DNA from: Escherichia coli
GTDB taxonomy: Bacteria > Pseudomonadota > Gammaproteobacteria > Enterobacterales > Enterobacteriaceae
Length of the DNA stretch: 64,000 nucleotides
Strand: one strand, 5' to 3'
Assembly (NCBI RefSeq): GCF_024298765.1
Contig: NZ_CP101211.1
Shown here: one piece after another, positions 3,001-6,000 of the stretch
How the letters are laid out: each line of letters starts with the position of its first letter
Numbering within the stretch: position 1 is the stretch's first letter
Made by a program: the position numbers

Positions 3001-6000
3001 CTCATAGGCGGCTTTAACCTGTTTTGAGAGATTGTCTGTTAATCGGTTGAGATCATCCCTTTTACCCGACAGCGACTCACTCGGTATGCTCATGGTTGAA
3101 ATTTTGGCCTCAACCTGGCGCAACATGTTGATTACGAGGCTCGTCGCAGCAATAGTGCTTATGTCCTGAATGTATGCGTACCCTTCCGGTGCTTCGAATG
3201 TTTGCAAAGAGTCGATAATGGTCGGGATGCCGATATAGGAGATAATGCGTAATTCATCATCTGAAACACGAACGTCGTTGATGATTTTTTTCTGTACGTT
3301 TAAAAGAAGATCAGAAATGGTATCCTTCAATCCCTTAAAACCACCGTCATTAACTTCTGACATGACAAGGCACTGAGCCTTTCGTGGGGATGATGGATCT
3401 GGTGCCGGAGAACACTTGAGCATTTTAATTGATCCGCCAGCTGGTGGCCCCATGATGTAATCCGTGACAGTCATGGTAGACGGGCGGACTTCCATTCCCG
3501 CTTTTTCGCCTTTGCTATCCCAGTTGATAATGACAGTACCCACGAGAGACATAAGTTGTTCTGCCAATTTATAACCGGATAACTCCGTTACCCCTCCGAT
3601 GTTCATTGTTCCCTTATCAATATCCATGAACGACATATAGAAGAGGTTACCACTGAATTTTTCAGCGAACTCTTCGGGATCCTTTGCTTTAACCTGAGAA
3701 GTGACAGCTTCAGGTGACTTTGTCATCGATGAGCCAAAATCAGGAATGAGACCATTAATCGATCCCAGAATTGAGGCTGGTCCAGAGCTAACTGAGTTAG
3801 CGAACTGGCTTGGCGTACCCACGTTTTCAGAAAGGAAAGAGTAAGTTGCATTGCATGAATCTTTCGCAAATTTATTTAGCGCTTGCAGTTTGTTTTGGAT
3901 GTCATTAATCGTTGCAGCACAGTCAGCACAAATAGCTGAAACAGCAACGTTAAAAGCATAGATAGCCGCACCCTGGGCAATACCACGGGCCACCTGCACA
4001 AGCTGGTCCCCGTTGATCATGCTGAAGGACCCAAGAAAAACGTCAATACCATTACAACCGACAGAAGCTTTTGGAAACGACATGGAAACAAGGTTGGTAT
4101 TAACGTTTGTTGTTCGGTAAGACATTGACCCGCCAACTATGCCTGTACGGGTTGCTGTGGAAAAGGTGGCCGGGCTGGTAGACGTCATCATGCCATTGAA
4201 AATGTTACGCATTGCGTTGTCTGCATTTGCAGTCGGGGCTAAAATTGCAGCACAAACAGAAAGAGACAAAAGTAACTTTTTGAAGTTGAAAACGGCATTA
4301 CTGCGCATAAGTGCCTCCAAAACTGCCGCCAGCATTGAGATAATTGACCGGATCGGCCGTAGGCATGTCATAGCCTTCGAGTTTTTGGTCCATTATTTTT
4401 TGAAGTAAGAATGGGTCTGATTCCATTTCGGATTTATTAACGGTAATAACGCCATCATCACCGATGGTATATTGCCTTTTAATATCTAGAGTTGACTGAA
4501 ACGAAGCGTCATCGATCAGATTCATGCCCTTCGCGGCAAGTATAATAGTGTTCTTTAATTCATCAGCGGAGATCATGCCTTCACTAATGCGCTGAGCTGA
4601 TGTCCCATCCTTTGAAACCAGGAAAATTGTAGGTACCTCTCGAATTTTAAATTGATCAATAATTTGTGCATTGGGGATGTTAAAATCCTGAAAAAGGCCA
4701 TTATGCAATGGCCTTCCATCCATACTGATTGGAAGAATATCTACCGAATAATAGTTCTGCATAAATTGAAGTATTTGGCTCTCTTCGTGGCAAAACTGGC
4801 AAGTACTCTGGAAAAAGAAAAATAAACCTGACTTAGTAAAGATATCTTTCATTACCGTTTGCTGATTTTTTTCAACAACAGTGCGGTGAGCATCCAGTGC
4901 CACCTTTTCCACTGGTTGCCTGCGTTTTTCAGACATCATCGGGTTTTTAAGAAAATAATCTTTTGATTTGTCAGAAAAACGCGTACTGATATCCAGCATT
5001 AACCTTTGCGCCGTGTAATAACGTGATAGATTTTCTGCGGTAGGGTTATCCATTGCCTGCGTTAACAGTCGAGGAATATTCTCTTTTAGCCATTTTGAAT
5101 TTAAATCTACCTTTTCCTCTTTTGAAGGCGAGCTAGCAGCACCGGTTGGTGGCAAAACCTTTTCTTCTTCAGCTTCGCTTTTTTTAGCAGGATCGTCATA
5201 CCAGAAGAAACCCTTCTTATAAGCCTGGCCTGATACAAAGGGCGTATCTTTTATTAGGGGTTGCTCAGGGCTGGCGTGGGCACCAGTAATTACCAAAGAC
5301 ATAAGCAAAACCATCTTTGAAGGCGCTAATGCAATACGAGTCATAGACCGTTCTCCTTTTCTGATGCGGTTATGATGGCATACAAAAAAAAGGTTAGAGC
5401 TCGTATAGCATGGTCGTTTTTATGTTGAAAAGGACGGAAAAGGAGTGCTGACTAAGAAGATAGTCTCGGTGATGGAAAGATCATCCATCTTGCACATTGT
5501 GAAAAATCCGGTGTAACAAAAACATGGTTTTATCGAATATCTAAAAGCAAATATTGCTTTGAAAACAGGTGTATTAAGAGCTGAAAAAAATCATCACCAG
5601 TAACGCTGTTTCTATATTTCAAAGAAGGAATAGCTAAGGATCAAAGAAGCGAACTTAGGCAAGAATATAAAATATATTAATTGAAAGCGATTAAGAAGTC
5701 GTCATGCATAGAAGGTTTTAGAGAACCTAAGTAGTTTTACGTTTTCAACAGAAAAAAAGGTGAACATTTTTTGGAACGAAGAAAGACTGTATAAAGAAAA
5801 ATCAAATTATATCTTTACTTGTCAAGAGTTAATATTTAAGTTGTAACTAATATTTGATTGTAAAGCAAACAACAGAATTTGACTTAAGTCAATATTTAGA
5901 TTCAGACAAGGCAAGTTTCGCGATATCTTTTTTAAATTTAATCTAATTCTTCTTGAGAATACCTCTCTATGGCTGAAGCAGTTGAAGATAATCTGCAACG

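Follow-up and report, generated by a model that had tools for sequence, protein, structure and literature searches.

A probable regulatory spacer between the R and F transfer operons of an IncHI2 plasmid, with a candidate extended -10 promoter next to trhF

IncHI2 plasmids rank among the major vehicles of mcr-1 and multidrug resistance, and TrhR and TrhY switch on their transfer at low temperature. Here, we describe the AT-rich spacer between trhY and trhF in a 64,000-nucleotide stretch of Escherichia coli DNA (NCBI RefSeq assembly GCF_024298765.1, contig NZ_CP101211.1), called the window below. The window comes from an IncHI2 resistance plasmid and is its Tra1 transfer region. Hundreds of IncHI2 plasmids, found in Escherichia, Enterobacter, Salmonella and Klebsiella, match bases 4200-7300 at 100% identity; every one of the 962 plasmid records matching these bases is typed as conjugative, and pG17-1, the plasmid record that was examined, carries the typing MOBH/MPF_F. 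Read along the minus strand, the genes follow in the order trhR, trhY, the gap, trhF, trhH and a traG-N gene:

6452-7252, minus strand: trhR homologue, 266 amino acids (aa), with one hydrophobic segment at about residues 150-171
5938-6450, minus strand: trhY homologue, 170 aa, with an invariant Cys4 motif; last gene of the R operon
5345-5937, minus strand: trhY-trhF intergenic spacer, 593 bp, GC 0.32; trhR, trhY and trhF share direction
4298-5344, minus strand: trhF, 348 aa, TraF-like thioredoxin-fold pilus-assembly protein; first gene of the F operon trhF-trhH-trhG

The genes for mobI, the relaxase and the coupling protein are divergent and lie on the other side of trhR, where the origin of transfer (oriT) is also adjacent. 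The IncHI1 prototype R27 has the same gene order (trhR-trhY-gap-trhF-trhH-trhG), with amino acid identities of 77% for TrhR, 85% for TrhY and 84% for TrhF. The shared order and these identities identify the three genes as the TrhR, TrhY and TrhF homologues and place the gap between the R and F operons, so that the regulator pair upstream and the trhF gene downstream that an earlier note had proposed from the sequence were both borne out.

The same note had described an AT-rich gap of about 590 bp upstream of trhF, and this was exact. With the trhF start at 5344 and the trhY end at 5938, both on the minus strand, the gap measures 593 bp and is richer in AT than any other stretch of its size in the 64 kb. 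Its GC of 0.32 compares with a mean of 0.458 for the window; only 0.4% of the 593-bp windows have a GC this low, all of them within the gap, and the 200-bp stretch with the lowest GC in the 64 kb (0.25, start 5751) lies inside it. The distal ~450 bp, away from trhF, has a GC of about 0.27-0.36. The strand that is transcribed with the genes is also biased, with a C/G ratio of 1.5 and 58% pyrimidines compared with ~0.9 and 47% in the flanking genes. The R27 spacer shows a similar pyrimidine bias despite its unrelated sequence, and C/G ratios of 1.2-1.5 were seen across the spacers compared. As expected of a region silenced by H-NS-type proteins, the AT content is well above that of the surroundings over more than 100 bp (GC 0.25-0.32 versus 0.458).

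To gain insight into which parts of the spacer are maintained, it was compared with those of R27 and a second IncHI1 plasmid, of pCFR-eb27, of two metagenomic lineages (TrhY 82% and 69% identical), of a Photorhabdus plasmid (TrhY 89%) and of two Klebsiella IncHI1B-like plasmids (TrhY 35%). A pattern scan of metagenomes, in which 25 of 120 hits were real trhF loci and the rest mostly random, added 8 leader variants; the extra IncHI2-like loci L019-L021 proved to be the second known haplotype and gave no added information. A long spacer was present in every lineage (593, 611, 615, 723 and 746 bp, and 2173 bp with an insertion sequence, IS), and the Klebsiella-type spacer is 920 bp long, 543 bp of it an extra open reading frame (ORF) of 180 aa. 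Between lineages, alignment is limited to the 57-95 bp immediately preceding trhF. For IncHI2 and R27, whose flanking genes are 74-76% identical in DNA, the alignable part is 57 bp long and 70% identical, and a 20-bp block within it reaches 95%.

Variation inside IncHI2 was unevenly spread as well. The two IncHI2 haplotypes differ at 13 positions, all in 5496-5831 (3.9%, compared with 0.25-0.86% in the flanking genes), and not at all in 5345-5495. The second haplotype, represented by locus L009, is 98% identical, and for this region 448 of 960 matching plasmids have an identity of 95-99%. The variable part can be given as one feature:

5496-5831, no strand: fast-evolving central spacer, with all 13 haplotype differences and no alignment to other IncHI lineages

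In several public assemblies of this second haplotype, shortened TrhY proteins are called: 162 aa in L019 (2501-2989), 156 aa in L020 (2172-2642) and 104 aa in L021 (2501-2815). The homopolymer-length differences in L021 suggest assembly errors rather than real variants.

The spacer also tolerates insertions. Among IncHI2 plasmids, an ISKpn26 sits at 5634-5640 and, in pCFSAN086836, an IS1 at 5817-5826; p4281_EMB is likewise a natural plasmid with an IS insertion. The Photorhabdus spacer (L014, 4900-6450) holds an IS with a 436-aa transposase, and a Pluralibacter locus has a 322-aa ORF after trhY that is probably a transposase. Degraded Klebsiella-type loci carry an IS5 (virulence plasmids) or an IS3-family element straight after trhY, and a scan of genome contigs gave a single degraded locus. 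The loci with insertions after trhY were L010, L011, L014, L006/L008 (~3980-5140), L022 (4212-5323) and L026 (3760-4728). In the loci that retain trhF, from three lineages, every IS insertion is upstream of the conserved ~100 bp next to that gene.

These ~100 bp contain a compact promoter-like module with the following parts:

5353-5358, minus strand: trhF Shine-Dalgarno (SD) sequence AAGGAG, 8 nucleotides (nt) before the ATG at 5344-5342
5372-5382, minus strand: candidate extended -10 of the trhF operon, in which TATGC (5382-5378) fits TRTGn and CATCAT (5377-5372) is a hexamer with -11A and -7T
5384-5391, minus strand: T8 run just upstream of TRTGn, at -19 to -26 from the predicted start
5397-5445, minus strand: conserved block CTCCTTTTCCGTCCTTTTCAACATAAAAACGACCATGCTATACGAGCTC further upstream, about -32 to -80 relative to the predicted start

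The start predicted from the candidate extended -10 is at ~5364-5366. All 16 distinct leader variants have 5-9 consecutive T ahead of T[AG]TG[CGT][CG]AT[ACG]ATA, followed by GGAG or GGGG 14-15 nt past the box and an ATG 6-8 nt further; in the window, these elements are the T8 at 5391-5384, TATGC-CATCAT-A at 5382-5371 and GGAG at 5356-5353. The box was kept even in plasmids whose TrhY is only 35% identical. The pattern occurred once per locus, always at this place, and nowhere else in ~200 kb of IncHI sequence that included both transfer regions of R27. It is the sole -10-like site whose position is conserved in every lineage (-31 to -34 from the ATG), and the TG at -15/-14 and the hexamer with -11A and -7T that define an extended -10 are present in all of them. 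The TRTGn extended -10 motif is reportedly the subject of work by Burr and colleagues from 2000. It is a recognised motif, to go by the entry for Voskuil & Chambliss 2002 in the reference list of PMC10773906. No -35 element accompanies the candidate (best 2-3/6), and a scan of 5200-6100 found no complete consensus sigma-70 promoter in the gap, where shuffled sequences would give 3.1, and no intrinsic terminator (a GC-rich hairpin with a U-run) downstream of trhY.

The upstream block follows the pattern TTTyC..CTTTwAAC..(G/A)AAAwCkACC..TTAy/CTATAC..GAGCTC in six HI1/HI2-like lineages. Activators usually act around -32 to -80, and by its position and conservation the block at 5397-5445 is a candidate activator-responsive region. 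We then looked for an element shared with the other transfer promoters. By eye and with a small expectation-maximization motif search, A4-5 N3 ACC followed by TTA/TAT recurred in the F, H, AC and Z promoters of both R27 and IncHI2; the top 16-mer of the search, AAAAnnnACCnnnGnTAT, scored 11.2 bits versus 10.7 ± 0.2 in shuffles, a value inflated by homologous pairs. A shared activator box of this type is not separable from chance and is kept as a lead only. An initial guess at such a box had been badly specified and gave chance-level hits.

A separate observation concerns only IncHI2. The sequence CTCCTTTTC (5437-5445, transcribed strand) is the exact complement of the SD region GAAAAGGAG (5353-5361), which lies ~80 nt downstream, and a second copy, TCCTTTTC, is found at 5427-5434, one helical turn from CTCCTTTTC. 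The other lineages are without this arrangement.

What is known of R27 gives the spacer its context. In that plasmid, TrhR as well as TrhY is needed for activation of the F, H, AC and Z operons, and HtdA counteracts them (PMC7366339). A lacZ fusion of the F operon promoter, placed in the chromosome, serves as a routine reporter that is activated by TrhR/TrhY and repressed through HtdA, and in an array of an R27 htdA mutant at 25°C trhF was up 27-fold and trhY 2-fold (PMC7366339). The 27-fold change of trhF against the 2-fold change of trhY implies that the F operon has its own promoter downstream of trhY and that read-through contributes little. By analogy, the IncHI2 gap must hold the promoter of the trhF ("F") operon, and its control by TrhR/TrhY/HtdA would be as in R27. 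At 37°C, transfer of IncHI plasmids is silenced by H-NS and Hha, reported to act via repression of trhR (PMC7366339).

Taken with the conservation pattern, this leads us to favor, as probable though well short of certain, a model in which the gap is a regulatory spacer between the R and F operons, with a core of ~100 bp next to trhF carrying the extended -10 and a remainder that acts as a compositional insulator. In this model, the spacer would divide the R operon trhR-trhY, encoding the activators, from the F operon trhF-trhH-trhG for pilus assembly. The core would consist of the extended -10 TATGc-CATCAT lacking a -35 hexamer, the T-run in its spacer and the upstream block; such a promoter would be weak on its own and, in line with the missing full sigma-70 consensus, would depend on the TrhR/TrhY pathway for firing, and its transcripts would begin at ~5365 with a leader of ~20 nt and a strong SD sequence. 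The distal ~450 bp would most likely act only through composition and length, by separating the operons and offering a binding platform for H-NS/Hha, and an untranslated, pyrimidine-rich spacer transcript might promote the Rho-dependent loss of transcripts reading through from the R operon. The sequence itself shows the gene context, the composition, the conservation pattern and the absence of coding or structured-RNA signal. The promoter activity and the TrhR/TrhY/HtdA control in this model come from the R27 experiments, while we infer the exact -10, the start, the role of the upstream block and the contributions of H-NS and Rho.

Several points weigh against this model. The hexamer CATCAT agrees with the -10 consensus at only 4/6 positions, and the lineages have C or G at -12. 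According to a secondary source (PMC9598596), TrhR is a membrane protein and TrhY is cytoplasmic; this description, together with the hydrophobic segment noted above, means that direct binding of DNA by TrhR/TrhY should not be assumed. The F block GAAAnCkACC..TTAy/TATAC resembles GAAAATCAC..GGTATAGT of the H promoter, and a second reading would place the F start near GAGCTC (~5400), with the T-run and TRTG box inside a leader of ~60 nt. Binding of the spacer by H-NS is plausible from its AT content alone, and no helical phasing of AA/TT, a sign of curvature, was detected in the gap. The gap had no match to the integration host factor (IHF) consensus, and a CRP half-site scan gave 252 matches where 254 were expected, with none in the gap at up to 2 mismatches. 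The Rho step might operate on what is a mild bias of C over G. Finally, the arms around the box show some covariation of the kind expected of RNA.

This last point is the basis of a different account of the conserved box. In transcripts begun upstream, in the R operon or near GAGCTC, the U-run and its flank would pair with the SD sequence and block translation of trhF; the hairpin could be a fourU-like thermosensor, or an insulator ensuring that only transcripts from a regulated promoter inside the hairpin-coding DNA are translated. Minimum free energy (MFE) folds of the leader do pair the U-run with the SD sequence in HI2 (z=-1.3), L015 (z=-2.8), L012 (z=-0.8) and L014 (z=-3.2), and the flanks covary (ACCAAU/AUUGGU, ACCAUU/AAUGGU, GUCGUU/AACGGU). 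In an arm-swap test on 5 lineages, the native arms ranked first of 120 permutations, but with all 8 lineages the test gave p=0.053. The alignment had 83.9% of its cells paired against 78.2% in shuffles (3/500 as high) and a covariation score of 0.242 against 0.158 (1/500 as high), although the structure being scored was derived from one of the sequences and RNAalifold returned no consensus structure. In 16/16 variants, the MFE fold pairs the SD sequence at least in part; in the IncHI1-like and Klebsiella clades, however, the SD sequence pairs with partners other than the U-run, and the T-run is invariant there all the same. Moreover, wobble pairing lets a U-run bind any run of purines, a fourU thermometer would turn translation on at 37°C, the reverse of IncHI transfer, and an extended -10 is a simpler explanation for the invariant "loop" sequence. 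We therefore regard this hairpin account as unlikely, without dismissing it.

The two functions could be combined if the promoter lies inside the hairpin-coding DNA, since only read-through transcripts would then carry the anti-SD arm. The box would have a dual role, as DNA being the TrhR/TrhY-dependent trhF promoter and as RNA, in R-operon read-through, providing the U-run arm that pairs with the trhF SD sequence. This would reconcile both readings, but we give it a rather small chance. If true, a thermosensitive conjugation system would have a translational insulator built in between its regulator and pilus operons. The hairpin idea is one weak lead, and it is the only item here that would be worth an experiment.

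The end of the spacer next to trhY, 490-550 bp upstream of trhF and directly past the trhY stop, carries the repeats that had first drawn attention to the gap, together with other sequences of regulatory appearance:

5831-5839, plus strand: repeat copy 1 AATATTTAA, which fits AATATTTRA; the second IncHI2 haplotype has G as its first base
5849-5857, plus strand: repeat copy 2 AATATTTGA, which fits AATATTTRA
5891-5899, plus strand: repeat copy 3 AATATTTAG, which does not fit AATATTT(A/G)A and overlaps the palindrome end
5879-5892, no strand: perfect 14-bp palindrome TTGACTTAAGTCAA, 45 bp past the trhY stop
5806-5825, minus strand: perfect TTGACA (5825-5820) and perfect TATAAT (5811-5806), 8 bp apart

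The earlier note had counted three AATATTT(A/G)A repeats. Two copies, at 5831 and 5849, are exact, and the third, at 5891, reads AATATTTAG. For the shorter 8-mer AATATTTR there are indeed three plus-strand occurrences within 68 bp, and a fourth, on the minus strand, at 5548-5555. On this basis, the repeats and the palindrome could be specific sites, either UP-like or protein-binding elements of a distal promoter with the TATAAT, or a terminator or operator past trhY. The close packing is in favor of such sites, as three copies within 68 bp are reached by only 3.7% of shuffles (three copies of a 7-mer all within 70 bp, dinucleotide-preserving shuffles of the gap). Yet some non-homopolymer 7-mer occurs at least three times in 67% of the same shuffles, and as shuffling evens out local composition while the repeats lie in a part with 26% GC, the true chance is above both of these figures. 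AATATTT itself reached three copies in only 4/2000 shuffles, but the word was picked after looking. Conservation speaks against specific sites too. Copy 1 carries an A-to-G change at 5831 in the second IncHI2 haplotype, and the repeats do not occur in the corresponding gaps of R27, pCFR-eb27 or four further lineages. An array of regulator sites would have at least three copies beyond chance, kept in related plasmids, and the AATATTT repeats do not behave in this way. The proposal that the triple repeat is a promoter UP element or a regulator site was thus not supported, as it is not conserved even within IncHI2 and lies far from the sole conserved promoter-like module at 5345-5445.

On the transcribed strand, the TATAAT follows the copies at a distance of 20-90 bp, as a promoter served by them would. 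With 8 bp between them, however, the TTGACA and the TATAAT are too close for one sigma-70 promoter, the TATAAT has no usable -35 (best 2/6), its position is not kept in other lineages, and the IS1 of pCFSAN086836, inserted exactly at the TTGACA/TATAAT pair, parts it from the repeats in a natural plasmid. As for the palindrome, a related core, TGAyTTAAGT, recurs in the Photorhabdus locus L014 and in R27, but TTGACTTAAGTCAA has no second copy in the window. As RNA, it would fold into a hairpin of 5 bp, two of them G-C, ahead of a U-rich stretch, a weak terminator at best, and the folds of the trhY 3' trailer were not significant in any of six lineages (z from -1.1 to +0.3). A further point for specific sites is that the distal 106 bp (5832-5937) have no differences between the two IncHI2 haplotypes where ~4 are expected at the central rate (P ~0.02). 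These 106 bp may be functional, for instance as a weak terminator or a binding site, on evidence that is thin, and the repeats are not their conserved part. Altogether, a specific role of the repeats and palindrome appears improbable to us, and the AATATTT repeats are best explained by composition, as a by-product of AT-richness that fills the spacer rather than as specific sites.

The possibility that the spacer has coding content, present or past, was also explored. The earlier note had suggested a small gene of under 60 codons hidden in the gap. No ORF of at least 60 aa lies wholly within it. There are eleven ORFs of 16-30 aa, only one of which (5445-5516, plus strand and thus antisense, with a GTG start) has an SD-like sequence. 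None is kept in other lineages, and most are altered in the second IncHI2 haplotype, where a 25-aa ORF loses its start codon. Comparison of the spacers by tblastx gave no conserved coding signal beyond the promoter-proximal DNA, where the hits fell in several frames and on both strands, which indicates non-coding conservation. Nor did we find signs of a small RNA gene. A scan of 4800-8200 against Rfam at E<=10 gave noise with no match at a family threshold, the microRNA-like hits being spurious matches on both strands of the oriT inverted repeats; the fold of the whole gap as RNA has z=-1.0, with no structure signal, and there is no promoter-like and terminator-like pair. The short-ORF and ribosome-binding-site survey thus speaks against the suggested gene, and a small protein or small RNA gene in the gap is in our estimate very improbable.

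A decayed gene has somewhat more to be said for it. The Klebsiella-type loci L004 and L007 have the 543-bp ORF right behind trhY and then ~360 non-coding bp, and the two copies of the 180-aa protein are 88% identical; the HI1 and HI2 spacers have a similar overall size, evolve at a nearly neutral rate and tolerate insertion sequences, all as would be expected if they were the remains of a third gene of the regulator operon with no function of their own. We searched for this pseudogene with the 180-aa protein by tblastn against every HI1/HI2-type spacer, and the best hit had E=0.46; the tblastx comparison had shown no coding-like conservation either. A length of ~600-750 bp, a low GC and the pyrimidine bias persist over unrelated sequences, and this persistence points to some constraint on composition and length. 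We consider simple decay to be quite improbable. The extra ORF stands between the trhY homologue and traF at 4030-4572 in L004 and at 4036-4578 in L007, and the protein has no Pfam or NCBIfam match.

Under the favored model, in which a promoter core next to trhF is followed by a compositional spacer, the gap is the IncHI2 counterpart of the known F-operon promoter region of R27, and in this respect it is ordinary and largely known. The two regions agree in gene order, in spacer size (611 bp in R27 versus 593 bp), in flanking proteins that are 77-85% identical, in being AT-rich and pyrimidine-biased, and in the proximal box (TTTTTTTnTATGCCATCATA in R27) and the SD sequence GGAG. They differ in that the spacers cannot be aligned beyond the last ~60-95 bp and that the R27 spacer has neither the AATATTT triplet nor a perfect palindrome. 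The control of the F promoter by TrhR, TrhY and HtdA was tested in R27 only, and IncHI2 is known here from its sequence.

The likeness to other known systems is partial. With extended -10 sigma-70 promoters, the box shares the TG at -15/-14 after T-R, the -11A and -7T, the missing -35 and a conserved activator-type region upstream, but the IncHI2 hexamer has the 4/6 match and the C or G at -12 mentioned above and its start is predicted. With AT-rich regions silenced by H-NS/Hha, which include the thermoregulated tra genes of R27, the spacer shares a GC far below the rest of the plasmid and an accumulation of insertion sequences; the H-NS target described in PMC7366339, however, is the trhR promoter and not the trhY-trhF spacer, and A-tract phasing is missing here. 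The AT-rich gap with its three repeats has the normal look of a horizontally acquired, H-NS-prone promoter spacer, and in itself adds little. With fourU thermometers and SD-sequestering leaders, the resemblance lies in a U-run able to pair with an AGGAG SD sequence and in closing pairs that covary in four lineages, whereas the U-run would not be transcribed from the predicted promoter, the pairing is missing in two clades, the temperature direction would be reversed relative to the IncHI phenotype and RNAalifold gives no consensus. The ~100 bp conserved across IncHI1, IncHI2 and Klebsiella IncHI1B-like plasmids offer a compact target for reporters and for a search for TrhR/TrhY-responsive sites, and help to ask if the regulation known from R27 extends to IncHI2.

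The regulators themselves gave few relatives. Searches of TrhR and TrhY against Pfam, NCBIfam and PDB sequences found none. A profile search of 1.84 billion representative proteins returned 29 relatives of TrhY at E<=1e-3 and no link to a larger family, so that TrhY forms a very small orphan family; it has four invariant cysteines (C132, C135, C149 and C152). Its AlphaFold 2 model, a poor one with a mean predicted local distance difference test score (pLDDT) of 61, had no Foldseek fold match at E<=0.001. An activator pair of the FlhC/FlhD type, similar to AcaCD/SetCD, was considered for TrhR/TrhY and not supported, with no family, PDB or fold match, the fold part of this being weak given the poor model.

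Beyond trhR, between this gene and mobI, there is a repeat cluster at 7576-7745 with three direct units of ~39 nt and inverted repeats of 15-38 nt built on AAAAGTGACCCTATG / CATAGGGTCACTT; it is probably the oriT/relaxosome binding region. In the RefSeq entry of R27 (L017, NC_002305), the name trhF sits on a 170-aa gene of Tra2 (10873-11385), and the TraF-like thioredoxin gene of Tra1, which is the trhF of the literature (R0126; 10835-11881 in L005), is left unnamed. The locus tag R0125 is missing from the published R27 array table.

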